A stretch of 64,000 nt of DNA from Nitrospirota bacterium (GTDB lineage: Bacteria > Nitrospirota > UBA9217). Position 1 is the stretch's first letter. Each line of letters opens with the position of its first letter. The notes below the pieces were generated by a model. The model was not told the DNA's origin, searched no databases, and saw nothing but the letters and a program-made list of their open reading frames with translations. The translations under genes and the position numbers were made by a program. Where the stretch lies: NCBI GenBank assembly GCA_963751455.1, contig CAVVUN010000012.1, positions 480,001 through 544,000 of the forward strand. Direction: 5' to 3'. Shown piece by piece: positions 40,342 to 61,352 of this stretch.

Positions 40342-41369
40342 TCATCGCCCTCCACCCAACTCCTTCTCCAACTCTGCTATTGTCGGCAGCTTGCCCTGTA
40401 GTTTCTTCGGGAGTGACCCTGTGAGCTTGTACCCGGAAACTCCGATAGGCTTTCTGGTGTCCCGCAGGGCGTATTCTACGATCACCTTGTTTTTTTCCTT
40501 GCAGAGAATGATGCCGATGCTCGGTTGGTCGTCTTTGTGGCGCAAAAGATCGTCAATCGCGGAAAGATAAAAGTTCATCTTACCGGCGTATTCCGGCTGG
40601 AACTCGCCCATCTTGAGATCGATCACCACGAAGCAACGCAGCCGCGATGGCAGAAAAGCATATCGAGATAGAAATCCTGATCACCTACTTCAAGACGATA
40701 CTGGCTTCCGACAAAGGCAAAGCCCACGCCCAACTCCAGCAGAAATTTTCCGATGTGCTCCATCAGGCCGCGTTCGAAGTCGCGCTCTTCCGCTTCTTCA
40801 CCAAGATTCAGGAAATCGAACAGGTATGGATCCTTCAAGGCCTGGTGGGCAAGTTCGGATTGGGGTTTCGGGAGTGTGCGCTCGAAATTGATGATCGCGC
40901 TCCCTTGCCGGTTATACAGGCCGCTCTCTATCTGATGGACAAGCACGGGCCGGCTCCAGCCATGCTCGATGGTTTTATTGATGTACCACCGGCGCTCGGA
41001 GGGTTCCTTGATCTTCTGGATTATGCGAATAATGTGCCCCCACGGTATTTGTGAAACAAGCTGTTTCACAATTGACTCATCGGAGAACGCCTCCGCAAAA
41101 CTCCTCATGAACAAGAGATTTCTTGATGAAAACCCTTTCATCTCCGGAAATTCCATTCGAAGATCAGCGGCCAGACGCCCAATAACCTTTGCGCCCCATT
41201 TTTCCGCCGCCTGCCGATTCAGAATGTCGCCGCCAATGTGCCAGTAGAGCAGCACCAACTCGCGGTTGGCCGAAAGGGCGGCCCGGACCTGCGCCGCGCG
41301 AATGCGCTCTTTGATGTCTTTGAGAAACTCAGCATAATCGCGTGAAACCTTTACAAGGTCATTTCCCAT
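40342..41369 (-). CDS. YhcG/DUF1016 PD-(D/E)xK nuclease-family protein, frameshifted near 40640
   Basis: LYWHIG, KGFSSRNL, IPWGH, KDPYLFDFL, LELGVGFAFVG; then VIDLKMGEFQPEYAGKMNFYL, IGIILC. Confidence 0.9.
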
Positions 41370-41664: not shown

Positions 41665-42027
41665 TCACTTCGTTTTACTTCTGACAAATTCCATAAACGC
41701 CCGGAAACCTTCAATTGCAGTGAGGGGGAAAGGCGCAGCTTCGACGGTGTCCTGGGTTCCGTTATGAAAATGGTGGGGATAGGTTGTTACGTATTGCCAG
41801 TTTTTGTCGGGGAAGTTATCGTATTGGTAGATGGTGTTCCCGTCATCCATGCATTCCCAGTGAAAGCCGAGTTTGTCCGGCAGTGTTCTGGAGAGATGCA
41901 CGTCGACGAAACCCTTGGAAGAAAGAATGATCCGCAGCTTATAATCAACTCGATGGGAACTCTTTACAATGTCCGAAAATTCGACCTCCGCAATCCTTTT
42001 GAGATCATCAAGGTCCGGGCTCGGCAT
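41665..42027 (-). CDS. TumE/DUF6516-like putative toxin
   Basis: YQYDNFP...TYPHHFH motif. Start overlaps the stop of the upstream gene. Confidence 0.65.
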   Translation of the reverse strand: MPSPDLDDLKRIAEVEFSDIVKSSHRVDYKLRIILSSKGFVDVHLSRTLPDKLGFHWECMDDGNTIYQYDNFPDKNWQYVTTYPHHFHNGTQDTVEAAPFPLTAIEGFRAFMEFVRSKTK

Positions 42028-42302
42028 CAGAGTTCCTCTAAAAACTTCTTTATTTTTTCGCGTTCCGCTTCCAGATTGTCCAGTGCAAAATAGTCATCGT
42101 ACGCCTCGCGTTCGCCCACGGTGCCGCTCTTTGCCTTCTCGTCCAGCTCGAAGACGTTGCGCACTCCGTGTTTCTTCGCTATGGTAAAGATTTCCGCCTC
42201 AATATTTACGAGGCGCTGTTCCAGGTAGGTTTTGAGGCTTTCCTTGAGCAGTTCGCCGGGCTTCATATGCAATTCTTTTGCGACAATATCGATTGCAGCC
42301 AT
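42027..42302 (-). CDS. Putative antitoxin partner (91 aa)
   Basis: Small helical protein with AAGGAGG RBS, translationally coupled (TGATG) to the TumE-like gene. Confidence 0.6.
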   Translation of the reverse strand: MAAIDIVAKELHMKPGELLKESLKTYLEQRLVNIEAEIFTIAKKHGVRNVFELDEKAKSGTVGEREAYDDYFALDNLEAEREKIKKFLEEL

Positions 42303-42994: not shown

Positions 42995-43104
42995 ATCGCG
43001 CACCTCATCGCCCTCCACCCAACTCCTTCTCCAACTCTGCTATGTAAGATGAACTTTTATCTTTCCGCAATTGACTATCTTTTGCGCCACAAAGACGACC
43101 AAAA

Positions 43105-43224
43105 CTTGGATCAGTATGGAGCGGGGCAAGCATTCTGTCTCGCATGAACTCGATATCGCGCTGGGCGGTGCGCGGCGATATCTCGAACTTTTCGGCAAAA
43201 CAGGAGGCATTCGGATAACCCTGA
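43105..43224 (-). pseudogene. Fragment of a WYL-type regulator N-terminal HTH
   Basis: GYPNASCFAEKFEISPRTAQRDIEFMRDRMLAPL. Confidence 0.65.
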
Positions 43225-43563
43225 AAACGGCAGTTGGGCGCAGATGAACGCAGATAACCGCGGATCAAACAAAAGAATTTTTAGAGAAAAAAATTCACCC
43301 GCAGGGTGACTGCTTTTACGATACAAGAACGTTTTTTTATCCGACCTTATCTGCGTTTATCCTAAAAACGGCATTTGAACACGGATGAACACGGAAACAG
43401 CGGATCAAAACAATGTGATAGAGCAAAAAGCCATCTCGCCTTTTGGGTGAATCCATTACTGTTCGTAACTTCCTATAAATCCGTGTTGATCAGATTTTAT
43501 CCGTGTCCAACTGCTTTTTTCAGGTTTATCCGATTTTTCTGCGTCCCAAATGCTTTTTTTAGG
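43220..43563. repeat. Palindromic element with a second related element nested inside
   Basis: Outer CCTGAAAACGGCAGTTGGGCGCAGA...TCTGCGTCCCAAATGCTTTTTTTAGG; inner CCTAAAAACGGCATTTGAACACGGAT...ATCCGTGTCCAACTGCTTTTTTCAGG. Confidence 0.7.
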
Positions 43564-43680: not shown

Positions 43681-44691
43681 CTAGAGCGGAAAGTGACAGG
43701 CAACGAGATGTCCTTCGCCGGCGTCCTTTAACTCCGGTTCAGACGCGGCATCGGTACATATGGAAGGTCTGCCCTGGGATGCATACACAGGGCAGCGTGG
43801 TGCAAAACGGCAGCCTGAACCGGGCCGCTCGAAATCAAAAACGCCCCATGTGCCTGTTTGGACGTTTTTTGACGTCATTGAGGCTTCCTTGCTGTGTTTT
43901 TCGGCCAGAGAAGACCACAGGATGTGAGTGTAAGGGTGGCTTGCCTTGCCCGCAATACGGCCGGCGAGACCCATCTCGACTATCTTGCCCAGGTACATTA
44001 CGGCAACGGTATGGCTGATCAGTTCCACGACCCTGAGATCATGTGATATGAACAGAAAGGAAAGGCCGAGCTGCTTTTGCAGGTCCCGAAGAAGGTTGAT
44101 GACCTGCGCCTGGATGGATACATCGAGGGCGCTGGTGGGTTCATCGGCCACGATGAGTCGAGCGCCTACCGAGAGAACCCGGGCCACGCCGACACGCCGC
44201 TTCTCTCCGCCGGATAACTCATGGGGGAAATTCGACAGTTTGCTCTTTTTAAGGTTGACTTGTTCCAGCAAATCGCTGATGCGCTGGTTCACGTCGGCGT
44301 CACTCATTTCATGATGGACCTGGATCGATTCCTTCAGAATGTCCCGTATGCGCATCTTCGGATTGAGAGCTGCGTCCAGGTCTTGAAAAATCATCTGCAT
44401 CTGTCCGCGGAGCAGCCGCAGGTCCTCGGGAGGCATGGCAATGATATCCTTGCCGTCGAAAAGGATTTTGCCCGAGGTGGCCGGCAGGAGCCGAAGAATC
44501 GTCTTGCCGATCGTGGTCTTTCCGCACCCGGATTCCCCTACAAGCCCCAGGGTCTCATTCTCCTTGAGAGAAAAGGTTACTCCATCCACCGCGGGAATAG
44601 ACCGTTTCTTTTCCTTGAACGCCGAGAAGAGGCCCGCGTGCTGGGCAAAGTGCTTTTTAAGGTCTATGACTTCGAGTATGGTTTTTGACAT
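43681..44691 (-). CDS. Oligopeptide/dipeptide ABC transporter ATPase (OppF-like)
   Basis: GESGCGKT, LSGGE, DEPTSALD, GCRFAPRC, VACH. Confidence 0.92.
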   Translation of the reverse strand: MSKTILEVIDLKKHFAQHAGLFSAFKEKKRSIPAVDGVTFSLKENETLGLVGESGCGKTTIGKTILRLLPATSGKILFDGKDIIAMPPEDLRLLRGQMQMIFQDLDAALNPKMRIRDILKESIQVHHEMSDADVNQRISDLLEQVNLKKSKLSNFPHELSGGEKRRVGVARVLSVGARLIVADEPTSALDVSIQAQVINLLRDLQKQLGLSFLFISHDLRVVELISHTVAVMYLGKIVEMGLAGRIAGKASHPYTHILWSSLAEKHSKEASMTSKNVQTGTWGVFDFERPGSGCRFAPRCPVYASQGRPSICTDAASEPELKDAGEGHLVACHFPL

Positions 44692-44701
44692 AATCAAATC
44701 A

Positions 44702-44812
44702 TTGGACGCAGATAAACGCTGAGAGCTGACGCTCGCAGAAAACGCCGACTGCCTCTCTAAGAACCGCTTCCCCGATTTAATCTGCGTTCATCTGCGTAAA
44801 TCCGCGTCCCAA
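44702..44812. repeat. GGACGCAGA-family palindromic element between the two ATPase genes
   Basis: TTGGACGCAGATAAACGC ... ATCTGCGTTCATCTGCGTAAATCCGCGTCCCAA. Confidence 0.65.
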
Positions 44813-44823
44813 CGGCTTTTGTC

Positions 44824-45925
44824 TTAATCAAAATACAACCAGCAGCGCACCGTATGGCCGGGCGTGATCTCTCTCAGGTCCGGCTCCTTATGCTCGCACT
44901 TCTCGCGTATCGCATGGGTCACCCGGTTGCAGCGGCTGTAGAACCGGCACCCTGCCGGAATGTTGATCGTGTCGAGAACATCCCCCTCGATTGCGTGCAG
45001 ATAGCCTTTCTCTTTTATATTCTGCGCGGTAGGGATGGAAGACAGAAGTGCCATCGGTATAAGGGTGCTTCGATGCAAACCCTTTCCCGAGAATGTCCCT
45101 GGCCGGTCCATATTCGAAAACCGTGCCCCCGTACATCACGGCCACGCTGTCCGAGAGACGGGAAATGATGCTGATGTCATGGCTGATCAGCATCGTCGTG
45201 ATCCCGAGTTCCTGTTTGAGCTCCGCAAGAAGGTCAACAATCTTCGATTGTATCGTGGCGTCCAGGCCTGTTGTCGGCTCGTCCGCAATCAAAAGAGACG
45301 GCTCGCAGGCCAGCGCCATGGCGATCATCGCGCGCTGGCACATTCCGCCTGAAAGGCCGTAGGGATAGTTGTCAAACCTGAGCCGCGGCGAGTCTATCCG
45401 AACCCGGTCGAGCCAGAAGTATGCGCGGTCCGCGGCCTCCCGGTTACTCGTGATCGAGGTATGAAGCCGGATCGCCTCGGTTATCTGCTTGCCGACGGTA
45501 GTAAAGGGATTGAGCGAGGACTTCGGGTTCTGGAAGATCATGGCAATCTCTTTGCCGCGCACCCCGCTCATAATACGTTCCGCATTGTCGCTCCCATCCG
45601 ATAACATCCTTGCTTGCCCGCATGATCATGCCGTTCTTCTTCTCGAGCCTTACGTAGTCGCCAAGATCCGGGAGAAGGTCCTTCCGGACCCGCGTTGTTT
45701 TTAATTCGACCTTGCCGGTGATAACGCCAGGGCCGTCGCTGATAAGTCCCATGACCGACAACGCCGTGATGCTTTTGCCGCTCCCGCTCTCGCCCACGAC
45801 CCCGAGAGTCTCACCGGGCGCAATCGCGAGGCTCACCCCATCGACGGACCGGATAAAGGCCCGCTTGCTGCGGGAGTAAAAATACGTGCGAAGATCCTCA
45901 ATTTCAGGAGCGAAGCTGTCGTCAT
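44824..45925 (-). CDS. ABC transporter ATPase (OppD-like), broken by about three 1-nt frameshifts
   Basis: GESGSGKS (ORF 45444..45836), [16 protein letters not shown] (44888..45607), [12 protein letters not shown] (44824..45111). The ATG overlaps the oppC stop. Confidence 0.88.
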
Positions 45926-46818
45926 TTGCCCCTCTTGCCTTCGAAGATATTGTTCAGCCCGTCTCCGAGCAAATGAAACCCGAGGATCGTGAAAAGAATC
46001 GCAAGCGAAGGAACGGTCGACGGCCAGAATTTGCCTTGCATGAAATAATTCGCGCCGGACTGCACCATGTTTCCCCATGAGGGCATTGGCTCCTGAACGC
46101 CGAACCCGAGATAGCTAAGGGACGTTTCCATGAGTATCGCCTCTGCCATGCCGAGCGTGGCCTGGATGATGAGGAGCGAGCGGCAATTATACCAGAGAAT
46201 GTGTTTTAGGATAATTGTTCGGGTAGGCAGGCCGAGTGCGGTATCGGCCTCGATAAAGTTCTTTTGTTTCAGAAACTGGATCTTCCCCTTGATGAGGGAT
46301 GCCACAACCGGGACATTGGTCAGCCCAACGACGAGCATGATGTAATAGATGTCCGGCTTGAAAGACGCGATGACGAGCAGGATGAGCACAAGCCGCGGGA
46401 AGGAATCCACCAGGTTCATAAAATAGGTGATCACCCTGTCCAATCCCGCCCTGGCGGGATATCCGGCGAGCACGCCGAGTATCGTGCCGAAAAAAAGGGC
46501 TATGAAGATAGCGAGCACTCCCGGAAGAAAATATGCCTGGATTCCAACGATGAGCCGGGACAGCATGTCCCGGCCCATGAAGTCCGTACCCAGGAGATGC
46601 CCTTCGGTTCCCGGGGAAGCCATCATGAGCTCGAGGTCGATGTCCTGGGGGTCGCGCGGCAAAAGATCGAATGAGCCAAGGATGTAGGACACGACAACAA
46701 GCGTAACGATGAGCAGGCCATATGCTATATAGGCAAGGTCAACCACGTCCGCTTTTTTCCAGAACGGCAGGTCTGAAAATTCGCCTATTGCGCCGGGCAT
46801 TTGAGTGTAGGTTTTCAT
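45922..46818 (-). CDS. ABC transporter permease (OppC-like)
   Basis: [14 protein letters not shown]-like loop, LSYLGFG...PSWG. Confidence 0.9.
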
Positions 46819-46969
46819 AATGAGTCTTGTCAAGCGGATACGGCAACGATGCCTGTGTCGTCGAGCGTCTATCGGCAACGTATTAAAGACGAACGACGTA
46901 ACACGTGACCGAAACGGGCTTCATTACCGATTCACCCCTTACGCCTCACACCCACTTCTTACGGGTTTC

Positions 46970-47944
46970 TTATTCCTTTGACCCCCTCGGATTCACTGCC
47001 ACATATACGATACTTTGAAGGAGACTGCCCATGCGCACGATGACAGCGGCGAGGATCGAGATGCCCATGATGACAGGGTAATCCCGGTCCTGAGCGGCCT
47101 GCCACGCCATTCTTCCCATGCCCGGCCAGTTGAAAACCTGCTCGACAATGACGGCGCCGCCCAGAATAAAGGGGATCTTGGACGCGACGATCTCGGTAAC
47201 CGGTATCACGAGGCCTTCCTTAAATGAATGCTTCCATACGGAGGCGCCCTTTGCACGGGCTGTGCGGATGTAGTCTTCGGCCATTACCCTGCCCATCTCG
47301 TCACGCAGAAAACGGATCACCTCGCTGATCGTGCCGTTCCCGATGCCCAGCACAAGGATCGGCAGCAGGGCATAAAGCCAGCCGAACCGGTTCGAGGATG
47401 TCGAGTAGCCGAGGGCTATTGGAAAAAGGCCGAGTTTATGCGTAAAGAAATAAATGACGATATAGCCGAGCCAGAAGACGGGTAAAGCGGAAATGATGTA
47501 GGAGAACATGGTAAGCGGCCAGGAAATTTTATCAGTGCCGCGAACGGCGGAATAAAGCGCGATCGGGATGGCGATCAACAGCGTGATGAACAGGGACCCG
47601 AGGGTGAGGGAGAGAGTATTCAGCCCTACTCGAACCACCTCCTTCAGCACCGGTAAGCCGGTCCGCATGGATGTGCCGAAATCGCCGCGCAGCATCCCGG
47701 TCAGCACTGAGAAATACTTGCCGTACCATGATGTGGGTACGCTAACGGCATCCCTGATGCCGGTTTGCGCCTCAAGCGTGGACACCCCGCCCTCGACCAG
47801 GGTGCTGAAAGGATCTCCTGGCGACAGATAGAGAATTATGAATACAACAAAGCTGACCCCGAGAAGCAGGAGCGCTGTCATCAGCAATTCCCTTGACAGT
47901 GCCAGGGCAATTGGACGGATAGCGGATAATTTCAGCGATGCCAT
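46970..47944 (-). CDS. ABC transporter permease (OppB-like)
   Basis: SPGDP, GDFGTS, DYIRTARAKG, VEQVFNWPGMG. Confidence 0.92.
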   Translation of the reverse strand: MASLKLSAIRPIALALSRELLMTALLLLGVSFVVFIILYLSPGDPFSTLVEGGVSTLEAQTGIRDAVSVPTSWYGKYFSVLTGMLRGDFGTSMRTGLPVLKEVVRVGLNTLSLTLGSLFITLLIAIPIALYSAVRGTDKISWPLTMFSYIISALPVFWLGYIVIYFFTHKLGLFPIALGYSTSSNRFGWLYALLPILVLGIGNGTISEVIRFLRDEMGRVMAEDYIRTARAKGASVWKHSFKEGLVIPVTEIVASKIPFILGGAVIVEQVFNWPGMGRMAWQAAQDRDYPVIMGISILAAVIVRMGSLLQSIVYVAVNPRGSKE

Positions 47945-48096
47945 GCGGAAGCTGGATATTTCATCGGTTGCCGAGCCATTGAGCGTTATCCCTTCTTTCT
48001 TAATATTTTAAAAAACCGGTGCCAATACCGTTAAAAACCTTTACTTCGCATTATCTTTAAATTTGAGTCAAGTTTTTGAGAAGCTAAAAAGCATTT

Positions 48097-48201
48097 ACCG
48101 CGAAGGCGCGAGGAGCGCGAAGGAAACCATACGACAAAATCTTATTTCTGGTTTAAACCCGTTTCAATTCCTGCTTTCCTCGCGTCCTGCGCCTTCGCGG
48201 T
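48097..48201. repeat. CGCGAAG/CGCAAAG-family palindromic element
   Basis: ACCGCGAAGGCGCGAGGAGCGCGAAGG ... CCTCGCGTCCTGCGCCTTCGCGGT. Confidence 0.7.
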
Positions 48202-48322
48202 TCCAAGGTATTTTTTTCATCGGTCTGAGGCCTTGCCTCGTTAAAAGTTGCACTAAAAACAAAACAGAAGACGCTGTCTCAGCGTACTTAGATCGATACA
48301 GATTTGTCATTAACTATTGGCC

Positions 48323-49933
48323 TTACTTCTGTTCTTTTTCCTCCATGAACCATTCATCCGCGTACGAGAAGAATTTATAGGGATGAATCGCCACGCGCCG
48401 TATCTTTTTGTGATAGGCCGCGTAATTCGTGAGCGTCCAGAGAAATGTGTAGGGGTTTTCATCTGCGAGAATCGAGTGGAGCTTGCGATTGATCGTGCGG
48501 CGTTTTTCATGGTCCAGGGTGAGTTTGCTCTCGTTGATCAGCCCGTCCACTTCCGGATTGGAATACCCTCCGAAGTTGTTCCTCCAGGGTCCGATCTCGC
48601 CTGAATGGAACAGCGAGGAGATGTCCGCTGAATCGTCAAAAACCCACGAGGCGAAAATGACATCGAAATCGTGCTCGAGGAAGACATCCTCCTTCCAGGA
48701 TTGCCACTCCTTGAACTCCACTTTGATGTCCACACCGATGTTTTTCAGGTAATTCTTAAAGGCGAGCACCACGCGTTTCACCGCCTCGCTTTCCTTTTCA
48801 ATGGGCACCTTGAGCGAGAGCTCCAGCTTTCTGCCCGCCTTCCGCATGAAGCCGTCAGGGCCGCGGCTGAAACCGGCTTCCTCGAGAAGTGCTATCGCCT
48901 TCTGAGGGTTAAAGGGCACCGGCTGTACATCGAGATTATATGCCCAGCTGCCAGGCGCAAAAGGCCCCGAGATGATCGTGCCCTGGCCGTTAAAGAACGA
49001 GTCGAGCATCTCCTGCCTGTTGACGGCGCAGGTAAACGCCTTCCGCACGCGCCTGTCTGCAAGAAACGGGTTCCGGGCATTATAGCCGAAGAAGGAGTAC
49101 GAAAGGGCATTATAGGGCTGGAGGACGAAACGCTTGTCGCCCTGGATCTCGGGGATATCCCGGGGATTCACAAGCACGATCATATCTATTGCGTTGAACA
49201 TCAACGCCTGGGTCATGATATTCTGATCCGCAAAGGGTTTGGCTACGAACTTATCGGGGTGCGGTCTACCCTTGAAATACGCCTCGTTTGCGGTGAGAAC
49301 AATCTCCCGTTCCGCCGTAATATTCTTCAGGATGAAAGGCCCGGTGCCGATCGGATGCTGTACGAAGCCGTCGTCCCGGGTAAGGTAAACCGGGTTGCTC
49401 GGGCCGTGCTTGGGTATCACTTTAAAGCTGAATTTCGCGAGCGCGTTCAGGATCGGCCGCTTCAGCGTAAACTTGACCGTGTAGTCATCGATCTTCTCCG
49501 TGGATTCGATAAACTCATAACGCACCTTGAGCGGCGTGATCGTTTTGGGATGCATCATGATCTTCCAGGTGAAGACCACGTCTTCTGCCGTAAACGGATG
49601 CGGTGCTTCGCCCTCGCGCTGATGCCAGGTCACGTCCTTGCGAAGGTAAAAAGTATAGGTGCGACTGTCAGGGGAACTCTCCCATCGCTCGGCGAGCTCC
49701 GGTACGATCTCCTGCTTTTCGTTGATCCCGACCAGACCGTTGAAAATAAGCTCCGAGAGCCTGAGCGAAATCATTTCATTGCTCGTGATCGGGTCCAGCG
49801 TCGCAGGACGGCCGTATTCGCCGTAGCTCACGGTGCCGCCGTCCGTTCTGCCGTCCTGCTTGCGGCCTGCCCACGTCTCGTTCGCTGCGAGCGTAACTGC
49901 TGTCAGCATCACTGCCATCAAGATCCGTTGCAT
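48323..49933 (-). CDS. ABC transporter substrate-binding protein (family 5, OppA/AppA-like)
   Basis: Signal peptide, TLDP, PELAERWE, FTAEDVVFT, PIGTGPF, YSNPEVD. Confidence 0.92.
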   Translation of the reverse strand: MQRILMAVMLTAVTLAANETWAGRKQDGRTDGGTVSYGEYGRPATLDPITSNEMISLRLSELIFNGLVGINEKQEIVPELAERWESSPDSRTYTFYLRKDVTWHQREGEAPHPFTAEDVVFTWKIMMHPKTITPLKVRYEFIESTEKIDDYTVKFTLKRPILNALAKFSFKVIPKHGPSNPVYLTRDDGFVQHPIGTGPFILKNITAEREIVLTANEAYFKGRPHPDKFVAKPFADQNIMTQALMFNAIDMIVLVNPRDIPEIQGDKRFVLQPYNALSYSFFGYNARNPFLADRRVRKAFTCAVNRQEMLDSFFNGQGTIISGPFAPGSWAYNLDVQPVPFNPQKAIALLEEAGFSRGPDGFMRKAGRKLELSLKVPIEKESEAVKRVVLAFKNYLKNIGVDIKVEFKEWQSWKEDVFLEHDFDVIFASWVFDDSADISSLFHSGEIGPWRNNFGGYSNPEVDGLINESKLTLDHEKRRTINRKLHSILADENPYTFLWTLTNYAAYHKKIRRVAIHPYKFFSYADEWFMEEKEQK

Positions 49934-50055
49934 GAATAACCTCCTCTTTAAGTACGGAATTCACCCTGCACTCGCGCTGCCGCACTGATAAACGCTGGGT
50001 GCAGGCGGAGTGCGGAGTGAGTGTTAAATCCGAACTCCGCAATCCGAAATTATGT

Positions 50056-51543
50056 TCAATTGATCTTCACGTCTCCCGCGCTCTTATGCTCCATTGCATA
50101 AATTCCCTGAAGCGCCTCCTGGATCTGGCGCACCTCGGGGAACTGCCTGCTCATTTCGAAATATATCTCGAGCGCTTCTGAAAACTTCTTCGTCTTTCCG
50201 TATGCCTCGGCAAGGCCGACAAGCATGGCCGTATCGTTGGACTCGATCTTGTTCTTGTTGCCCTTGTCCCGCCCGGCCTCCAGATATGAAAGCGCCCGGC
50301 CATATTCTTTTCTGGACAGGTAATAATCCCCCAGCGCTATATTCAACGGAGAGAATCTTTTTCCCTGCCCCGCCTCGGCGGACGCCTCCGCTTGTTTCGC
50401 GAGCTTCCCGCAATTTATCCGGATGCTCCCGCATGACAACATTATCTCCGCGAGCACATCGACGTCTTGCGACCCCTTCGAAAGCTCGTCCCAGGCTCTA
50501 AGCGATTCTGTTTTACGGCCTTTCCTGTAGTCATTGGCCGCCTGGCGAACCCTGGCCCTGGCCCGGTACCCGGCAGGAACTGCTGATGCGCCGAGGAATA
50601 CGTTCAGCGCTTTTGTGGACAGGTCGATTTTACCGTCCAAAGCATATGCCTCTCCAAGGTAGAAATTCGCAGTTTCCCGGAGTTTGCCTTCTCCCGCGGC
50701 TTTTTCCAGTGCCGCTATCCCCGCCTTCAGGTAAAGCGTCGACAGGTGACGGAGCAGCGAAAGATCGTAAAAATTAATTGTCTTCGATTTCCCGGCCGAT
50801 TCCCTGGTAGGAAAAACCGGCAAGATCGGCTTCTGCGGCCGCGCCGAGTGCTTTGTCGATCATCCCGGCACCGGAATAAACGGAAATCAGGCTGCTGATC
50901 TGGCGCATCGACAAAGTTTTTCCCGCTTTTTTCACCGCACCAAAGCTCTCTTCCGCGAGCGCCACAGGATTCTTGTCCATGATAGCCTGACCTGGTATAT
51001 GCGGCTGCGAGTGCGGACTTGATCTCCGGTTCGGCAAGGTCCAGACCGGCCCAGACATCCTCTGCCGCTTGTCGTTTGTTTTGAAGCGCGTAGCAGAGTC
51101 CCTTATCTACAGCCGCTATCGCTTTGTGAAGAGGGGCCACATCGTCCTCCCGGACGAATATATCGAGATAGCGTATGGCCTGATCGAACCTGCCGTGCTT
51201 CCAGCAGCGTTTCGGCGAGGTACAGATTTGCAAAGCGGCTCCTGTTTTTGCCGTGCCCCGCGGCAATTTTCCTTAAATACTCCAGGTGGACGGCAAGCGA
51301 TTGACGGTATAGTCTTTCGTGAAGATCGGCGTTCCTGAGATAGCTCATGCCGAGCGTCAGCTGGGCCGCTGCCTGCCGGGCCGGGTCGAGTGATGGCAGG
51401 GATGTTCGAAGCATCGATGCGGCCTCGGCAAAATGCCGCTTTTCGTACAGCTTCATGGCGCGGGTCGCGGCGTCCTCACCAGCAGGCGCCTGCGCAGCGG
51501 ACAAGAGGATAAGGAAGGAAATCAGAAATCTCATAGCTTTCAT
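50056..51543 (-). CDS. Exported TPR-repeat protein, split by several frameshifts
   Basis: Signal peptide MKAMRFLISFLILLSAAQA. Overlapping TPR-like ORFs 51103..51543, 50727..51266, 50774..51058 and 50056..50823. Confidence 0.7.
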
Positions 51544-51586
51544 GGCTTTTCCTTTGTTACAAGCATGTACTTCCCGGTCTTTAAGC

Positions 51587-52845
51587 TCACTCCTTCAGCC
51601 TCATTACATATATCTGGTCCCACTGGTTGACCTGTGCACGGAACGCGATGGCTGCCGTCGCGCGAACAAGTCACGTCGTGATTCATCCTGGTTTCCGTCT
51701 TAACGGGGATATTTCTCTTGCCCGCAATATCGGCAATATAAATCGGATTATACTCATGCCGGTCATTCTTCACATATGCGATCCTCGCGCTGTCAGGCAT
51801 CCATGCAGGTCCGACCTCGATGTCCGGGACCACATCGGTCGCGACAATCTTCCCGGCGAGCGTCAGCCCCTCGCTCGGGTCTGAACCGTCCGATGCAATT
51901 ACGACGATGGACCATACCTTTGGGTCTGCCTCCGCGTTATAGTTCGAGTAGAAAGCGATGTTTTTGCCGTCAGGAGACCAGACCGGTCGAAGATCATCAG
52001 GCGCCCACGTGGTCAGTCTCTTCATCGACTGCACCGGGTTCATGACGTCCCCGACGAGCAGGATGTCATGGTTTTCATTGCTGCCCGCCGTCATCACGAT
52101 TTTTTTCCCGTCAGGCGACCACCGGGGATGAAGATACGGCTTCCCGCCCGCGGGTCAAACGGGTCAGCGCGCGAGACGGGAGATCGAGGATATAGATATC
52201 GCCATGGCCTGTACGACCGGATACAAAGGCAACCCGGTCGGCCGTATGCGACCAGTCGGGCTGACCGTCCTTTTCCCGGTGATCGGTAAGCCGGACCGCC
52301 GCCTTCCCGCCCAGTTCCTGAAGATACAGGTCATAATTGCCTTCCCCGCCATTGCTCATGAATATGAACCGGTTGCTGCCGGGAGACCACGTGATGCCGG
52401 CGTTATAGCTGGTCTCGTCGTTGAAGCCCGGAAGAAAAAACTTCGTTTCGTTTCCATCGTCGGATGAACCGATGGACACAGTCTGCATTTCACTTCCGTC
52501 CCGGTAAACAATGCGGATCTCTTTTTTATCGCTGATGCTCCGTTCAAAGGCGACGAGCGCCCCTGGTGGAGACCATTGCGGGTTCGAGTCGTTTCGCCCG
52601 GGTTCTATTTTGGTAAGCGGAATGACGGACACAGGTTCTATTGCCTGTGTCGCTCTCTCTTCCTCTTTTTTTCCGGTATTCTCTCCCGAAGTTGAAAGTA
52701 AATCGAGTACCGGAACGGGAGGCCCGGCCGGCGCCGGCGCCGACGTGTTTGCCGGCAGGGACCTCAATTCCTCGGCGGGGCATTCAAGCCCGATGCATAC
52801 GATTACGAGAGCATAGGCCAGCGCCGCGTTCTTACTCTGCTTCAA
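51587..52845 (-). CDS. TolB-like PD40 beta-propeller protein, frameshifted
   Basis: Repeated P.WSP.G...IAF motifs (NPQWSPPG, ITWSPGS, PDWSHTAD, PVWSPDGKNIAF, PAWMPDS). Inferred true end ...IYVMRLKE*. Confidence 0.8.
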
Positions 52846-52936
52846 ACTGGAATCCTCCCCTTGCCTCTCACCATCTCTTTCCCCGCTCCGAATGTGTTCG
52901 TCTCATCGGGAGTACAGAGAGGAATAAGGCGCATCC

Positions 52937-55516
52937 TTACAGGTCCTTGATCTGGTCCCAGTACTTGCGTGCTGATTCACGGGCTTCAACGAATGGTGCG
53001 TTCGCCTCCAGGTTCTTAGGGAAAAAATCGAAATATTCCCTCCACGCGAGATTGGCGCTGTTCAAAATCGAACTCTTTCTGGTGATGAGGTAGAGCTTGT
53101 GATATGCGAGCGCGGTATAATAATATGTGTCATGGATCGCCTCGTCGTATTGGACATTCGGGAAGAACCGGGTGTTCTGTTTCGCGGTCTGGAGGTTCTG
53201 AATCGCCCGGGCGAAGTTCTGGGCCGCGGAGTCCTTGTCGCTCTGCACCAGTTGATTGCCCTTTTCGTAGTAAGCGTGACCAAGGTTGGTGAAAGCAACC
53301 GCGTACTGTTTATAGACAAGCTGCTTGTTCTCGGGCAGCGACAGCACGTTCTCAAACTCCTGCGCGGCAGAGTCATAGTCATTGAGGTCGTCGAGATAAA
53401 TACGGGCCAGCCTGTGGTGGGCTTCTGCGTAGTCGGGGTGCCCCTTCTCCGCACTCTTGTATGCCTGCACGGCCGCGCCGGTATTCCCATCCTGGAGCGC
53501 CCGCTCGCCGAGCTTGAGGTAGTTCTTATAAAGAAGTATTTTCGCTCCGCCGGTGCGGTTTTCGACCGTCTTATCGAACTCCACGACTTCTTCCCAGTCG
53601 CGGTAGTCCCCGCCGTACGACACTTTTACCGTATGGAATCCCAGGTTCACCAGTTGCCCTTCGAGGATCGGCGTCTTCCCGATCTTATCTCCATCCAGGA
53701 ACACCCGGCAGATGATGGGTCCGATTCTATCTTAAACAATGCATTGTTGACGGCAGAGCACGAATTCTTTCGCGTCCTTATTTTTGTCGATCTTTACGTT
53801 TTGTATTACCTGCTGGTATCCGTGCCGGTAAAGAACGAGGTTGAAGTTTTTGCCGATGCGGACAGGCACCTCCGCTTTTCCATCCGCTGCCGTGCTGCCG
53901 CGCCACTCATCATTCACGTAAATATTCACGCCGGACAGCGGGGACAGATCCGGCGCCAACCCTCCCTTTGCCGAGAGAATGAAATAATTGCGGGCTGTTG
54001 CGTCATCTTCAAGGGAGAGTCGCCTGACCACACGGTCCCCGAGACTGATCTTTTCGCCCTTCTTAAGGTCCTCAACTTCCGTCCATGCCCCCGAGTCCTC
54101 TGATTTTTTGACTTTGAGTCTGCCCGACTCCCGGTACCCGGATATCTTGCCGCTCTCATCGCGTCGCGGAGCCATCAACACCAGTTCAGCGCCCCGGCTT
54201 ATCTTATAGCTCCGGCCGATGTTAACCCGGTATCGCTCCTCTTCGGACCCGATCACGGTGCCCTCGAAGGGAAAACGTTCAAGCACGCTGGAAGCTATTT
54301 CCTTCGCCGCCCTCGTAATATCCCCTTCACCCGGAGCCCGGGTGATCTGGCTCAGGATGAGCCTGCCTCCGGCCGCATAAAACTTGGTTTCGATCAACAG
54401 CCCCTTATCGTCTTTCGCCACGCTGCCGAGTATAATCATGTCCACGGTTCTGAACAGCGGAGTTTCGCGCCATCCCTTCACGATAATTATTTCTATACTC
54501 AGCTTCGCATGCTTGATCTCGGCCTGGAGAGTCTTCGTAGAAACCTCACGGAAGCAGGGATTTTTGAAAAGCTGGGCGGCAACCGAGGATTCCACCTTGC
54601 CGAGGACTTCTTTCATGTCCGCCTTCGGCGCGTTGCTGACGAACCGGTAGATGCCCGCTCGTATCGGCTTCGCGGTTGCCGGATAGAAATAGTGCTGGAC
54701 TGCCGCTTCCCCTTCAAGCACGACTGAGGTCTTCCAGACAGCGGGGACATGGCCGGGCGCTTCGAGCGTTATCTGTGCCTTCCTGCCGGGCTCGCCGTCA
54801 TACCTGTATATGAGAGCGCCCTTTGCGTCGGTCCTGCCGATCTGCTTGTTGTCCAGCCGCACGGACACACCCGCGATGCCGTTGGTCTGTCCATACTCCT
54901 CGGTAAGCGCGGCAACAACGATCGACACTTGTTTGGAAAGCGCTGCTGCAAGCCGCTGACCGGGTTCGACGTCCGCGGTCTTGCGCCATGGGGCGTAGCC
55001 CTGCTTCACAACGGTAAGCTCAAGACCGCCCTTCGGCGAATCCTTATAGTGATAAACAAATTCGCCCTGTGCATCGGTTTTTCCGGCTTCTTTACCTCCG
55101 GCCTTCACAACCGCTTCAGCCACCGGAGAGCCCTGGTCCGTTGCGACAATGGTAATATAGCGGAGGGCGGACAGCTCTGCATTTAAGGAATAGGTATCTA
55201 TGCTGCCCGACTTCGGCAGCTTCATCAGGAAAGTGCTTTTCCACGGTTTAATGCTGTACCCCGGCAGTTCCCGGGCAACCGTCACCTCGACGTCGGCGCC
55301 CGGCTTTTTCCTGATTATTTTCGTAAAGGCCCCGTTCGCGTCGGCGACACCCTCTTCTTTTCCGTCAACCAGGATCTTCGCCTCGGCCGCGGGCTTCCCG
55401 TCCATTCTGGCATTTACCCTGAGCTCAAGTTTTTCACCGCATCCGTACAGCAGCATCGACGCCGAAATTATAAAAACTAAACGTATAGCATGCTTTATCA
55501 TACAATGCCTCCTCAA
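52937..55516 (-). CDS. Large lipoprotein: beta-sandwich/PEGA repeats, CsgG/FlgT-like domain and C-terminal TPRs; one frameshift near 53740
   Basis: LLYGC lipobox; repeated V.DGK..G.TDA.G units; DMIILGSVAK...IETKF; FPFEGTVI..YRVNIG; PEGA VFLDGDKIGKTP; TPRs. Confidence 0.7.
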
Positions 55517-55582
55517 AGCGCTATAACAAAATAGAAGCGTATAATTAAATTAGAATAAAAAAAAACCAGACGCACTGCATCT

Positions 55583-56032
55583 TTACATCGTCGGCGGCTG
55601 AATATTGACCTCGCCGGGGTTCACGATTTTGTCTTCGTCAGACTTCGCCCCCTCGATGCTTTTTCGCCTACCCTCGGGTATTTTTTTGAGTTTAAAATCG
55701 ACTTTTTTGCCGCCATATTTCGTCACCTCAAGGGTTTGTGTATCGGTCATGTAGCCGATCCTGCTTGCTTCCACCTTATAGGTGCCCGGAATAATATAAT
55801 CCTTGGCCGATTCGTATTTTCCATCGACTTGGACCGTCACTGCCTGCGAGGCCCTCTCGAGGCTTGTCGTAATATTGATCATGTTGACCACAGTGCCCTG
55901 GGGGCTTTCCTTCGCGGGCGGGATCGGTTGCAGATTCGCATCCAGCAGTTGAACCGTTCCGTATATTTTCGGCGCGCATGCTTCCAGTGCAAACATCAGA
56001 ACAAACAGCAACAGAATTTTTTCTCGCTTCAT
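55583..56032 (-). CDS. Lipoprotein with a carboxypeptidase-regulatory-like beta-sandwich
   Basis: LEAC lipobox, IYGTV, PGTYKVEASRIGY...VDFKL. Confidence 0.72.
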   Translation of the reverse strand: MKREKILLLFVLMFALEACAPKIYGTVQLLDANLQPIPPAKESPQGTVVNMINITTSLERASQAVTVQVDGKYESAKDYIIPGTYKVEASRIGYMTDTQTLEVTKYGGKKVDFKLKKIPEGRRKSIEGAKSDEDKIVNPGEVNIQPPTM

Positions 56033-56093: not shown

Positions 56094-56133
56094 AAAAAGC
56101 CGCCAAAAAGAAACAATCTGTTCTTTGGCGGCT
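56094..56133 (-). terminator. Intrinsic terminator in the 5' leader of the operon
   Basis: AGCCGCCAAAGAA...TTTTTGGCGGCT followed by TTTTGTTT, about 60 nt upstream of the first ATG. Confidence 0.75.
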
Positions 56134-56164
56134 CGACTAGCATATAAACAGTAGAATCTCTTTC

Positions 56165-56246
56165 TGGTCGGATGAGATATCGGGTTACTGTTTTATTTAG
56201 CTTCGTGGCTCTGCGCCCCGCGGTTTCCCGCGGTTTGCTCTGAGCA
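56165..56246 (-). ncRNA. GEMM-I (c-di-GMP-I class) riboswitch-like aptamer, A20 variant, with a degenerate 3' arm
   Basis: GCUCAGAGCAAA-CCGCGG-GAAA-CCGCGG-GGCGCAGAGCCACG aligns with the GEMM-I 5' half. It sits between a promoter and a terminator. Confidence 0.62.
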
Positions 56247-56274
56247 AAGGGATATTATGTTGGTTGTGGAAATG

Positions 56275-56303
56275 ACTTTATCATGTCATGCAGGGGTTGT
56301 CAA
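56275..56303 (-). promoter_or_regulatory. sigma70 promoter of the riboswitch leader
   Basis: TTGACA-N17-TAAAGT with a TG extension. Confidence 0.7.
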
Positions 56304-56588: not shown

Positions 56589-56804
56589 CTAGTGTAGTGT
56601 CTCACAAACGACTGGTGTTATCATAGCGCGGCAGTAGGCCGCAGCCAAACTTGTAGGGTAAGGCTTTAGCCTTGCTGAAAGCGCCGGGACAGCAGCAACC
56701 CTAAAGGGTCGCCCTACAAATTCATCAGCAAATATTTATGCGAAGATAAGTTTTCGATGAGAAATCATCATATAACACCGTCCATTTAAGAAACACTACA
56801 CTAG
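56589..56804. mobile_element. MITE-like element (copy 2, inverted relative to 9808-10021)
   Basis: CTAGTGTAGTGTCTC...GAAACACTACACTAG. The terminal CTAG supplies the TAG stop of the adjacent gene. Confidence 0.8.
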
Positions 56805-58168
56805 CCTGCGGGCAGGAAATCAATCGGGTACAGGATGGTCGTCCTGGGAACCTTCGCCTTCGGTCCGAAGTTGAACTTCTTGACACGCTCCACAATCTGC
56901 GCCACCAGCTGCGGCGAGGCGAGATCGTTCGACTGCACCGTACATGCCGAGACTTCGCCACCCGACTCGATGATGATGCGCAGTATAATCTTGCCGCGCA
57001 GGGTCGGCTTCTTGCGCAGTTCTGCATTGTAAATCCGGTAGAGCGTAGCCTTGTATCTATCGAAGACGATCTGTATCTCTTCGTCGGTTCGGGCCGGCCC
57101 GGGTCCGGAACCGACAGGCTTCGCCTTTTCCGCCAGCCCCGCAACCGTACTTTCTACCCTTGTAAAACCCACACCCCCGATCCGATTTCCATTGCCGCTC
57201 CCGACATTACGGCTCACGCCGGCATTGCTGATACCGCCGCTCGAGCCTGCCGTTGATTGCATGGCGAGTATCGATCGACCTGCACGAGCCTGACCTGCCG
57301 CCACTGTCGGCTCTTTACTCAGCCGCGCCTCGGCGCCGAGTCGCGCAGCGGGAGTTTCTTCCATCAGATCTTTAAACGTCTCTTTGAAGGCCAGGACCCC
57401 CGTGCTTTCCGCTTTTTTACGAGCAGCCTGTGTTTCTGCGGGTGTTGCTTTCGGTTTGTCTTCCTTAGCAGCTTTTTCCTGATCTTTCTTTTCTTCTTTT
57501 CGTTCAGGCGCCGGCTCAGGCTTGGGCGGCTCATTTCTCAGCATGGAGACCAGACGTTCCGGAATTACAGGCACGGCCGGGCGCACCGGCGCGGGCAGCT
57601 TCACCAGGGGAATCACAGCGCCGAAAACGAGATAGAACGATAAAACGACAATCAGAGCCTTGTGGAAGCGTTCTTCGCTCGCAGCCTCAAGCATCGGGCG
57701 ATCAGGGACCGGTGAAACCTCCCGCTCTATGACGTACTCTTCCTGGCGCCGTTCTTCACGGGCGTATACATCACGCAGTTCTTCGCGGAAGATGTTCAGT
57801 TCTGCTCCGCAAAGATTGATCTCCTCCCGGAGAGAAGCCTGTTTTTCCAGGACCCCGCTTATCGTCCGCTCAAAGCCGGCAATCCGTCTCCGGGTCCGTT
57901 CGACGTGTCCGGGGACATTCTGAGGCTCCGAGACTCCTGCCCAGAAGAGTTCCTCGGCTTTCAGTTCCCCCAGTTTGTCGAGCGCAGTGCAGACGTCCCG
58001 CAATGCATCGAACCGCTGTCTCTCGGCGGAAAAAGTCTCCAGCTCCACCTCTACAGCGCGCAACTCTTCTTCGAGCACCGCGCCTATTTGCCGGGCATGC
58101 TCGATCTGTGCGTTGAGGCCCGCCAATTCTTCTGCTAAGATGTCCTCTTCCAACAGAAATGTATCCAT
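56801..58168 (-). CDS. GltG/PglI-like protein: coiled coil, TM, Pro/Gly linker and AgmX/PglI (TonB-C-like) domain
   Basis: RTDEEIQIVFDRYKATLYRIYNAELRKKPTLRGKI...FNFG...ILYPIDF. Confidence 0.8.
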   Translation of the reverse strand: MDTFLLEEDILAEELAGLNAQIEHARQIGAVLEEELRAVEVELETFSAERQRFDALRDVCTALDKLGELKAEELFWAGVSEPQNVPGHVERTRRRIAGFERTISGVLEKQASLREEINLCGAELNIFREELRDVYAREERRQEEYVIEREVSPVPDRPMLEAASEERFHKALIVVLSFYLVFGAVIPLVKLPAPVRPAVPVIPERLVSMLRNEPPKPEPAPERKEEKKDQEKAAKEDKPKATPAETQAARKKAESTGVLAFKETFKDLMEETPAARLGAEARLSKEPTVAAGQARAGRSILAMQSTAGSSGGISNAGVSRNVGSGNGNRIGGVGFTRVESTVAGLAEKAKPVGSGPGPARTDEEIQIVFDRYKATLYRIYNAELRKKPTLRGKIILRIIIESGGEVSACTVQSNDLASPQLVAQIVERVKKFNFGPKAKVPRTTILYPIDFLPAG

Positions 58169-58178
58169 GGCAGCCCCA

Positions 58179-58673
58179 CTAGGTTTTTGCGGCCTTCTGA
58201 ATGACGGCAAGGGAAATCCTTCCGTATCCGGAGGCCGTGCAGGTTGACATTATTTTTTTAAGCACTTTGAACGGAATCGTTTTATCGGCAAGGAGCGTGA
58301 CTTCCCTGCTTTCGGCATCCGTCCTCGTGCCTGTCCCCATACTATTGCGTTCAAGTTGTGCCAGTCGGTTTTGTACTTCATAAACCAGCCCGATGCCGTC
58401 GTCGAGAAGCTGAGCGGTTGCAATCACAGCTTCGCCCTGGACCTGTACTGTTTCGGGGCTAACCACGATCGTCAGTGTTTCCCTCGGCCTGGTCTCGACG
58501 ATCGAATCGGGCAGCGCAATCTTCGCGTCCGGAAGATCTCCGTTGAATGAGTGGAAAAGCAGAAAGAACACCAGAACCGTAAGAACATCCATCATCGGTA
58601 TGAGGTTCAGGCCGAGACCGGTCAGCTTCGTGTTGTTGCGTTCCATCCGTTTTATACGTCTGCTGTCTCTCAT
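58179..58673 (-). CDS. ExbD/TolR-family protein (AglS-like)
   Basis: LNLIPMMDVLTVLVFFLL, ADKTIPF...MSTCTASGY. Confidence 0.88.
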   Translation of the reverse strand: MRDSRRIKRMERNNTKLTGLGLNLIPMMDVLTVLVFFLLFHSFNGDLPDAKIALPDSIVETRPRETLTIVVSPETVQVQGEAVIATAQLLDDGIGLVYEVQNRLAQLERNSMGTGTRTDAESREVTLLADKTIPFKVLKKIMSTCTASGYGRISLAVIQKAAKT

Positions 58674-59176
58674 GGCGCGTCTCCTATGGATATCTTCGGA
58701 AAGAGCGCTATTTTTTCGACCTCTGCGCTCCCTTCCGCCCTCACGACAGCTTCACGAACCGCATCCATGACCTGAATCAGGTTGTCGTATTCGATCTTCG
58801 GCTCCATCAAAACCGTCGCGTCTTCCTTCTCCGGATATTGGGCTTTGATGCGAACAAGCGCTTTGGTCAGCAGCTCGATATCGTATTTGCCGTCTTTCTT
58901 CGGAATAGAAGCTTCCACGGACGATCCGTTCGCAATCTGCAGCCCTGAGTCGCGAACGATCACCTCGATCGAGAAGTTCGGCTGGTTCACGCCGGCTTGG
59001 CCGGCGGCCGTCGGAACACTCAATTCCATGATCGTAATCCGCATAAAGACTGCAGTGATGAGCAGAAAGACCACCAGAACGGTAAGAATATCCATCATGG
59101 GTGTCAGGTTCAGAACGTGCATGATATCCGTATCGAATGATACTTCCTTTCCCCTTTTATGATATCGTCTGGTCAT
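58670..59176 (-). CDS. ExbD/TolR-family protein (AglQ-like)
   Basis: LNLTPMMDILTVLVVFLL, IEYDNLIQVMDAVR, LFPKIS. Confidence 0.88.
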   Translation of the reverse strand: MTRRYHKRGKEVSFDTDIMHVLNLTPMMDILTVLVVFLLITAVFMRITIMELSVPTAAGQAGVNQPNFSIEVIVRDSGLQIANGSSVEASIPKKDGKYDIELLTKALVRIKAQYPEKEDATVLMEPKIEYDNLIQVMDAVREAVVRAEGSAEVEKIALFPKISIGDAP

Positions 59177-59855: not shown

Positions 59856-59957
59856 CTTTGTTTCCTCCTTTTTTGTTTATGAGTACGAATTATTTCGTAA
59901 CTACTCAGGTGCGTATTCCCATGTTGCCGCCCTGCTGGATTTGAATCTTTTTTTGAT

Positions 59958-60032
59958 GTCATTCCGGCTTGTCCGGAATCGTATAAAGCAAACAATTGAA
60001 AACAACGACGATTCCCGACAAGCGGGAATGAC
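59958..60032. repeat. GTCATTCC...GGAATGAC REP-like element
   Basis: GTCATTCCGGCTTGTCCGGAATC ... GATTCCCGACAAGCGGGAATGAC. Confidence 0.7.
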
Positions 60033-60057
60033 ACCTAACAGGTAGTGAGCAGTTACA

Positions 60058-60333: not shown

Positions 60334-60357
60334 ATTCTCTCCTTTCTTCAAACCTTT

Positions 60358-60512
60358 TGCCACGGATGAACACCGATAAAAATCTCTCTGCCGCAAATTA
60401 GCGCGAATTGACGCGAATAAAAGCATGATAAAGTTTTTTATTAAATCTCATTCGCGATCATTAGCGTTCATTCGCGGCTAACCGATCTCTTTTCTCCTGC
60501 GTTCTCTGTGAC
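60358..60512. repeat. Nested intergenic palindromes (CACGGAT and CGCGAAT families)
   Basis: GCCACGGATGAACAC...; GCCGCAAATTAGCGCGAATTGACGCGAAT...ATTCGCGATCATTAGCGTTCATTCGCGGC. Confidence 0.6.
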
Positions 60513-61312: not shown

Positions 61313-61352
61313 CGATCTGAGGCCTCCTTCTTAAACCTATTCGACCGCCGCA

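Follow-up and report, generated by a model that had tools for sequence, protein, structure and literature searches.

A conserved Nitrospirota operon with a GEMM-I leader joins four envelope proteins to a peptide-type ABC importer

Introduction

Binding-protein-dependent ATP-binding cassette (ABC) importers are usually thought to require only a freely diffusing binding protein. Peptide importers of the Opp/App/Dpp type, which we take to belong to the PepT family, include those served by Bacillus subtilis AppA and Escherichia coli DppA, and E. coli MppA-OppBCDF recycles released muropeptides. Here we analyse a stretch of 64,000 nucleotides (nt) from an uncultured Nitrospirota bacterium (GenBank assembly GCA_963751455.1), called the window throughout, which covers positions 480001-544000 of contig 12 in a 5.72-Mb genome of 15 contigs. 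It contains an operon of nine genes, in which four envelope-protein genes, termed g1 to g4, are followed by homologues of OppA, OppB, OppC, OppD and OppF and preceded by a GEMM-I riboswitch aptamer.

GEMM-I aptamers differ in their ligand. According to PMC6140456, G20 contacts one guanine of cyclic di-guanosine monophosphate (c-di-GMP), the cyclic GMP-AMP (cGAMP)-sensing GEMM-Ib riboswitches have A at position 20, with some of them bispecific, and GEMM-Ib has been reported from Geobacter and Clostridium beijerinckii. An initial annotation of the window recognised no described system with the architecture of the nine genes. Our search of the open-access literature likewise found none; PMC8835794 makes no mention of ABC transporter, PEGA, lipoprotein, tetratricopeptide repeat (TPR) or peptide. 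The reading that we prefer, and hold to be slightly better than an even bet, is that the locus is a self-contained, cyclic-dinucleotide-induced operon whose envelope proteins work with a dedicated peptide-type ABC importer.

Results

Envelope and importer genes form one unit

All nine co-oriented genes listed by the initial annotation were recovered as open reading frames with Pfam support. They run on the minus strand from 56032 down to 43681, and the feature spans 56303-43681 when the leader is included (Table 1). The stop codon of OppC overlaps the start of OppD (ATGA). In the relative L018, a short-read assembly, the nine genes are intact, with products of 149, 857, ~405, ~495, 538, 321, ~300, 366 and 336 amino acids (aa).

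The initial annotation had proposed that scaffold and ABC genes belong together and had named non-synteny elsewhere as grounds for refutation. The genes are syntenic. The order g1-g2-g3-g4-OppABCDF is kept in 15 of 15 public-genome loci as far as contig or flank reaches; it is complete in eight, and one locus has a ~1-kb gap between OppB and OppC. Four further loci have the same order, two of them from a second family in which g2 is 39-40% identical. Judged from these sequences, the arrangement is far beyond chance. In the second-family locus L027, an extra beta-sandwich lipoprotein gene (1129-1821) lies between g1 and g2, and only 12 nt separate g1 from a PQQ-like propeller gene upstream of it. 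Upstream neighbours vary from locus to locus and include an ABC-F ATPase, an aminotransferase, leuA/leuCD, pyruvate kinase and glycosyltransferases; the nine genes thus travel as a self-contained unit.

Co-occurrence points in the same direction. Searched with the N-terminal 594 aa of g2, 24 of 40 relatives carry the gene: 22 of 24 in the same family, both members of the second family and none of the 14 from nine other families. An OppA orthologue (71-87% identity) is present in exactly these 24 relatives, on the same contig and always adjoining g2, while the 16 relatives without g2 have OppA paralogues of at most 37% identity or none. A profile of the middle domain of g2 detected the protein in 52 of 301 genomes of a phylum-wide sample, the window's own included. 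In this sample it is limited to three Nitrospirota families (45/63, 5/6 and 1/5 genomes), with 0/226 in the rest. Public records with relatives of g2 are mostly Nitrospirota metagenome-assembled genomes, a few being labelled delta- or betaproteobacterium. The ESM Atlas returned four PEGA/CarbopepD_reg/TPR clusters for g2, some labelled Pseudomonadota or Thermodesulfobacteriota, which serve as a lead to its range only.

Conservation is uneven along the operon. Between the two families OppA is 68-72% identical, compared with 54% for OppB, 57% for OppC and 65% for OppF, and the PEGA-TPR end of g2 is 60% identical, compared with 39-40% for its N-terminal part. The g1 protein is 66-83% identical to its relatives within the family and 50% identical to those of the second family.

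The leader carries a GEMM-I aptamer and an overlapping terminator

The riboswitch named by the initial annotation was identified as a GEMM-I aptamer directly upstream of g1. It scores 55.5 bits against RF01051, with a gathering score of 35, and covers the full model (positions 1-87); its second hairpin carries a ~42-nt insertion. A promoter-like site lies ~25 nt upstream of the aptamer. The 5' arm of the intrinsic terminator doubles as the 3' strand of P1, the closing helix of the aptamer, and the terminator forms in the minimum-free-energy fold of the leader (z = -5.15). Since GAGCCGCCAAAG can pair with either the aptamer 5' CUUUGCUC or the downstream UUUGGCGGC, ligand binding should prevent termination, and the leader is predicted to be an ON switch.

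Homologous aptamers precede g1 at the gathering score in eight of eight loci. In a second batch none of five loci reached that score, and these sequences were then inspected directly; in L022 the aptamer is present with a longer insert. Among ten aligned leaders the terminator is invariant (10/10). The first stem covaries, one pair having changed on both sides in six of the ten, and the remaining stems hardly vary.

The nucleotide immediately 5' of GCAAAC is an A both in the window and in 15 distinct relatives, giving 16 distinct genomes by motif search (the count comes from 19 loci, four being genomes fetched twice). We equate this base with Vc2 position 20 (model position 11) by counting from the GAAA tetraloop, under what we take to be the Vc2 numbering. 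With this mapping, the leader has the A at position 20 that marks GEMM-Ib, the cGAMP-selective subclass. It is because of this A that we name c-di-GMP or 3'3'-cGAMP as the predicted ligand.

We also looked at the enzymes that could supply these molecules. A genome-wide regex scan found 41 GGDEF-signature domains, whose specificity position is Asp in 39, Asn in one and Ser in one, the last combined with GGEEF. PMC6456294 states that the specificity position of Hypr cGAMP synthases is Ser, that the signature of natural Ser/Thr enzymes is GGDE[F/Y] and that Ser combined with GGEEF is inactive. A Ser/GGDEF Hypr cyclase was thus not recognised among the GGDEF-signature domains of this genome. The genome's single gene with a SMODS domain (CD-NTase-like; contig 6, 271632-272027, in a 412-aa frame) could provide a cyclic dinucleotide by another route.

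Further aptamers of the class are found elsewhere in the genome. Two A20-type GEMM-I aptamers (55.5 and 51.6 bits) stand in tandem on contig 12 outside the window, at ~559690-560725 (L030 14688-15726). They precede genes for an OmpA-like lipoprotein of 183 aa, a DUF11 protein of 2247 aa and an OmpA-family protein of 1702 aa, which suggests that the A-type aptamers of this genome mark a surface-related regulon. At ~152283-152366 of contig 12 (L031 484-567), upstream of an 862-aa open reading frame, lies a variant aptamer of the c-di-GMP-I-GGC type (RF03167, 63.9 bits), which has G at position 20; A-type and G-type aptamers therefore coexist in one genome. A functional link between g3 and the riboswitch-controlled OmpA-like lipoprotein was considered and dropped, since the lipoprotein belongs to a multi-copy family present in 39 of 41 genomes and gives no co-occurrence signal.

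The large lipoprotein contains a TolB-N/PelC/CsgG/FlgT-type fold

Across relatives, g1 and g2 have lipoboxes and g3 and g4 have ordinary signal peptides; in the window g1 has a signal peptide with Cys. The AlphaFold model of the intact g2 protein of L018 has a mean predicted local distance difference test score (pLDDT) of 76.9. From the N-terminus, it shows three immunoglobulin (Ig)-like beta-sandwiches (residues 24-275), an alpha/beta domain (281-410) and a small beta-barrel domain (414-495). These are followed by a beta-sandwich (509-585), a PEGA domain (~590-661) and a helical repeat of the TPR type (664-857).

VIA-align listed TPR matches only for the whole g2 model, and the middle part of the L018 protein was therefore folded alone (pLDDT 84.9). 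Foldseek matched this part to FlgT (3w1e, E 3.6e-11) and also to the FlgT chain of the LPHT ring, to TolB (1e-7), to PelC (1e-4) and to CsgG (2.7e-4). VIA-align, run over 48,161 chains, aligned it with the N-domain of TolB (Z 11.7, rmsd (root-mean-square deviation) 2.5, 112 residues aligned), PelC (Z 10.5, rmsd 2.8, 110 aligned), the LPHT-ring FlgT chain 8z5n_5 (Z 10.4, rmsd 9.9, 203 aligned), CsgG (Z 10.3, rmsd 4.2, 118 aligned) and LpoB (Z 8.6). The CsgG/FlgT-like alpha/beta domain that the initial annotation had placed in g2 is thus right at the level of the predicted fold. The g2 sequence matches no Pfam family of the TolB-N/PelC/CsgG/FlgT-type clan, and no FlgT family at E up to 0.05.

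The g3 protein scores 141 bits against the NCBIfam TolB propeller TIGR02800, for which the cut-off is 343. For g4, NCBIfam gives weak matches to YbgF (29.8 bits) and LIC12587, and the ESM Atlas generic TPR clusters only. The TPR part of g2 aligns with YbgF (2xev) at Z 14.2 in VIA-align, whose own note describes helical-repeat values near 14 as common background.

These likenesses could be read as a Tol-Pal-like cell-wall module, in which g3, g4 and a g2 domain of the TolB-N/LpoB fold would take part in making or turning over peptidoglycan and the ABC genes would recycle the muropeptides set free. Such a role would fit the TolB, LpoB and YbgF matches, and MppA is among the solved relatives of OppA (E 2e-30). 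However, the family scores are far below the curated cut-offs, the TPR match lies within the background just mentioned, the operon encodes neither Tol-Pal core components nor a peptidoglycan enzyme, and OppA is far nearer to AppA and DppA than to MppA. We regard a cell-wall module as distinctly improbable.

The importer is of the Opp/Dpp type

The five ABC genes comprise one for a family-5 binding protein, two for permeases (BPD_transp_1) and two for ABC ATPases that end in an oligo_HPY tail (Pfam), the set that characterises Opp/Dpp-type importers. OppD, like the other genes, is available in intact form (366 aa) from L018. None of the NCBIfam equivalog cut-offs for named orthologues (OppA, DppA, NikA, SapA, GsiB and CntA systems) is reached; the best score is that for Opp4A (218 bits vs 650), with DppA at 173 vs 1005 and NikA at 161 vs 393. 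The nearest solved relatives of OppA are 8efz, AppA (1xoc) and DppA. An Asp aligned with Asp408 of DppA is invariant in 16 of 16 OppA orthologues, and Arg355 of DppA aligns with Val. If the two DppA residues have the roles that we assume for them, Asp408 in binding the peptide N-terminus, this is a hint that OppA may bind peptides that have a free N-terminus and are longer than dipeptides.

The neighbouring ExbB/ExbD cluster is not linked to the operon

Upstream of the operon, at 56801-63992 (minus strand), the window contains intact genes for ExbB, two ExbD proteins, a 469-aa protein without a Pfam match and TPR proteins of 266 and 879 aa. This cluster resembles a Tol/Agl-type motor core. The initial annotation had modelled the operon as a trans-envelope capture machine energised by the ExbB/ExbD/ExbD/TonB-like genes (56801-59855), and these do lie directly upstream on the same strand in the window. 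No homologue of ExbB, ExbD or the 469-aa protein was found in the 10-kb upstream flanks of the relatives' loci, and only one of four relatives searched has a homologue of the 469-aa protein, ~390 kb from its operon. The promoter-like site, the aptamer and the terminator separate the two clusters in the window. Moreover, the nine-gene unit encodes no outer-membrane barrel or channel and no TonB-dependent receptor; g1-g4 are predicted lipoproteins or soluble periplasmic proteins. As the motor cluster is unlinked and an outer-membrane channel is absent from the unit, both the motor coupling and the term "trans-envelope" are left without support, and we consider a motor-energised trans-envelope machine extremely improbable.

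Single-base indels interrupt four genes in this copy

Alignment of the operon with eight relatives revealed ten single-base indels in the coding sequence of four genes, within ~11.4 kb of coding DNA. In g2, an insertion (~53754) and a deletion (~53705) put 49 nt out of frame and create a TAA. Insertions are found in g3 (~52150 and ~51654) and g4 (~51195, ~50983 and ~50805), and OppD has a deletion (~45903) and two insertions (~45587 and ~45054). The frameshifts noted by the initial annotation are therefore real features of the assembled sequence in g2, g3, g4 and OppD, except that g2 is in one frame overall and is disturbed by the insertion/deletion pair only.

It is possible that the indels are true mutations and that the operon of this genome is a decaying pseudogene cluster. 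None of the ten lies in a homopolymer. The rest of the window has one frameshift in ~36 kb of otherwise full-length genes, in lgt, and ~12 kb of giant genes nearby is unbroken, so that the clustering of indels in the operon is real for this assembly; the unit is also missing from part of its family (present in 45/63 genomes). On the other hand, nonsense substitutions and larger deletions are absent from the operon, 1-nt insertions make up eight of the ten indels, and protein identity to relatives is normal in every frame. In the essential gene lgt (8812-9698, minus strand), the reading frame changes near 9440 at a poly-A run, which indicates that indel errors are present in the assembly. By a strict criterion, there are also private 1-nt insertions in the operons of L014 (three), L022 (one) and L024 (three), all contig_N records that look like long-read assemblies; L018, L013, L015, L021 and L028 have none. 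We therefore consider it probable, with good but not full confidence, that the ten indels are consensus errors of the assembly, and give decay a minority chance.

A cause resembling a methylation motif was considered for the indels and rejected. Four of the ten adjoin CGGCAG/CTGCCG, but most of the 88 copies of this hexamer in the window have no indel beside them, and the private insertions of L014, L022 and L024 have no motif in common.

Table 1. Positions of the operon and leader features in the window
Feature	Position	Strand	Evidence
Sigma-70-like promoter (TTGACA, 17 nt, TAAAGT, with TG)	56275..56303	-	Consensus scan 10/12; pattern match
GEMM-I (c-di-GMP-I) aptamer	56124..56249	-	Rfam RF01051, 55.5 bits
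Intrinsic terminator, GAGCCGCCAAAGA ... UUUUUGGCGGC + U run	56094..56134	-	Sequence and minimum-free-energy fold
g1, 149-aa lipoprotein, one CarboxypepD_reg-like beta-sandwich	55583..56032	-	PF13620 E 2.5e-5, below cut-off
g2, ~855-aa lipoprotein, PEGA + CarboxypepD_reg + TPR	52937..55501	-	Pfam; one-frame tblastn 55501-52940
g3, exported TolB-like PD40 beta-propeller, here in three frames	51587..52845	-	Pfam PD40
g4, exported ~495-aa all-TPR protein, 1-nt insertions here	50056..51543	-	Pfam TPR
OppA homologue (family-5 solute-binding protein, SBP_bac_5), intact	48323..49933	-	PF00496 E 2.8e-86
Terminator-like hairpin directly 3' of OppA (putative)	48271..48285	-	Scan and sequence
OppB homologue (permease), intact	46970..47944	-	PF00528 and NCBIfam
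OppC homologue (permease), intact	45922..46878	-	PF00528
OppD homologue (ATPase, oligo_HPY tail), here in three frames	44824..45925	-	Pfam on pieces
OppF homologue (ATPase, oligo_HPY tail), intact	43681..44697	-	PF00005 and PF08352

Other features of the window

The window also contains a CRISPR array with at least 71 copies of the 36-nt repeat GCTTCAATGAGGCCTCAGCATATCGCTGAGGAATAT, which adjoins cas4-cas1, Cas3 and genes of the GSU0054 and GSU0053 families; the latter two we take to be markers of type I-U. Array and cas genes together are covered by 22500-29400 and 29457-40098, and RhuM and Bro-N genes have been inserted between cas genes (31284-33191). Between these and the operon, the minus strand carries a DUF1016/YhcG nuclease gene with a shortened nuclease domain (40623-41369), a gene for a TumE-family toxin with a small upstream partner (41665-42302) and a small helix-turn-helix gene (43005-43268).

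Discussion

The likely function of the operon, as read from its genes and leader, is scaffold-assisted uptake or sensing of a peptide, induced by a second messenger. Without ligand, the terminator would form and transcription would stop before g1. With ligand bound, P1 would hold GAGCCGCCAAAG, the terminator would be blocked and the operon would be read. The g1 and g2 proteins would be lipid-anchored and g3 and g4 soluble in the periplasm. In this arrangement, g2 may supply a long Ig-like stalk, the TolB-N/PelC/CsgG/FlgT-type module and the highly conserved PEGA-TPR end. We infer a periplasmic scaffold of g1-g4 that would position or feed OppA, a protein of unusually high conservation; a scaffold working with OppA would explain both the constraint on this protein and the absence of an OppA orthologue from genomes without g1-g4. 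OppBCDF would then receive from OppA a peptide whose N-terminus is free and import it as a nutrient, as recycled envelope material or as a signal. Uptake or sensing would take place when the second messenger is high, probably in surface-attached cells.

Several observations weigh against this reading. TPR, PD40 and Ig-like domains, being generic, would suit many functions. The unit is patchy within the main family, where 45 of 63 genomes have it and two genera only 2 of 9 and 6 of 15, and the operon is thus dispensable. The gap between OppA and OppB measures 380 nt here, compared with 43-200 nt in relatives, and contains the terminator-like hairpin; the two together could uncouple the membrane genes. 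In the window, four of the genes cannot be translated from the assembled sequence. The ligand is ambiguous and may be c-di-GMP, 3'3'-cGAMP or both.

Riboswitch control is not universal either. The riboswitch claimed by the initial annotation is present in the window, but three relatives (L021, L024 and L025) have no aptamer and instead carry TGGCAT-N5-TTGC(A/T) boxes, typical of sigma-54 promoters, upstream of g1. In these, the same operon has exchanged its control element, a riboswitch for a sigma-54-type promoter box. Upstream of the operon in L027, from the second family, no aptamer was found at E up to 1. In L023 the aptamer is split, with its 5' half ~450-480 nt upstream of the 3' half and terminator (8844-9400), and its position 20 is G; either an insertion into the second hairpin or a disrupted switch could account for the split.

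Part of these observations would also fit two independent modules that are merely co-transcribed, with g1-g4 remodelling or decorating the envelope for attachment at high levels of the second messenger and OppABCDF acting as an ordinary nutrient-peptide importer, turned on together with them but physically and functionally uncoupled. The generic scaffold domains, the hairpin and long gap behind OppA and the surface proteins under the genome's other A-type riboswitches are all consistent with this. The phylogenetic record argues the other way: the OppA orthologue tracks g2 exactly through the 40 relatives, with only ordinary, distant paralogues besides, two families whose g2 proteins are 39% identical share the gene order with differing flanks, and OppA has diverged less than the ATPases and permeases of its own importer. 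We give independent modules a modest chance, well short of even.

A bolder form of our preferred reading is that g1-g4, once induced by a cyclic dinucleotide, build a ring or cage in the periplasm. The PelC/CsgG/FlgT-type domain of g2 would anchor it, and the conserved PEGA-TPR end of g2 would dock OppA. The assembly would serve to import a specific peptide signal or a matrix-derived peptide in attached cells. We think this version unlikely. If true, no earlier ABC importer would have had a capture scaffold of its own in the periplasm, and the A20 riboswitches would mark a second-messenger regulon of the cGAMP type, or a dual one, in Nitrospirota, beyond Geobacter and C. beijerinckii.

Independently of the bolder version, an importer strictly co-inherited with a propeller, a TPR protein and two lipoproteins suggests that some importers use a dedicated periplasmic scaffold. 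The operon would link peptide uptake or sensing to cyclic-dinucleotide signalling, and it places A20-type GEMM-I riboswitches in uncultured Nitrospirota. It also supplies parts that can be tested: the aptamer, a highly conserved binding protein and the conserved PEGA-TPR module.

Compared with Agl-Glt and ExbBD-TonB-coupled envelope machines, the operon differs in having no conserved linkage to motor genes in its relatives. It resembles FlgT of the Vibrio H ring in the alpha/beta domain and following beta domain of g2, which superpose on FlgT (E 3.6e-11; Z 10.4 over 203 residues, rmsd 9.9), and it resembles PelC and CsgG in combining this fold (Z 10.5 and 10.3) with a lipid anchor, as indicated by the lipobox. 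In contrast to all three, this domain of g2 matches no Pfam family by sequence and is embedded in a multidomain protein of 855 aa; flagellar, pel or csg genes were not found nearby, the neighbours being ABC genes. With the Tol-Pal accessory proteins TolB and CpoB (YbgF), the operon shares the PD40 propeller of g3, the TolB-N-like fold of g2 (Z 11.7) and weak YbgF-like TPR matches. Here, however, propeller and N-domain are on separate proteins and the scores are far below the family cut-offs, and the operon has no TolQ, TolR, TolA or Pal by Pfam and in the relatives' loci.

The leader is close to described GEMM-I and GEMM-Ib riboswitches, such as Vc2 of Vibrio cholerae and Gs1761 upstream of pgcA in Geobacter sulfurreducens, in its covariance-model match and its hairpin with a GAAA tetraloop. 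Its A at position 20 is that of the cGAMP-sensing members as described in PMC6140456. The 3' strand of the aptamer is common to the terminator here, which gives the predicted ON-switch architecture. The leader differs from Vc2 and Gs1761 in its Nitrospirota host, in the 40-60-nt insertion of the second hairpin and in the genes downstream. A Ser/GGDEF Hypr cyclase was not recognised in the scan of this genome, and the ligand may therefore be c-di-GMP, cGAMP or both.

The closest relatives of the importer itself are the Opp/App/Dpp systems, with which it shares the five-gene layout and, relative to DppA, the Asp equivalent to Asp408. The importer stays below every NCBIfam equivalog cut-off, and its OppA has Val at the Arg355 position and is better conserved than the ATPases. 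The other difference from these importers is the setting of the genes, which here belong to one conserved operon with four envelope proteins.

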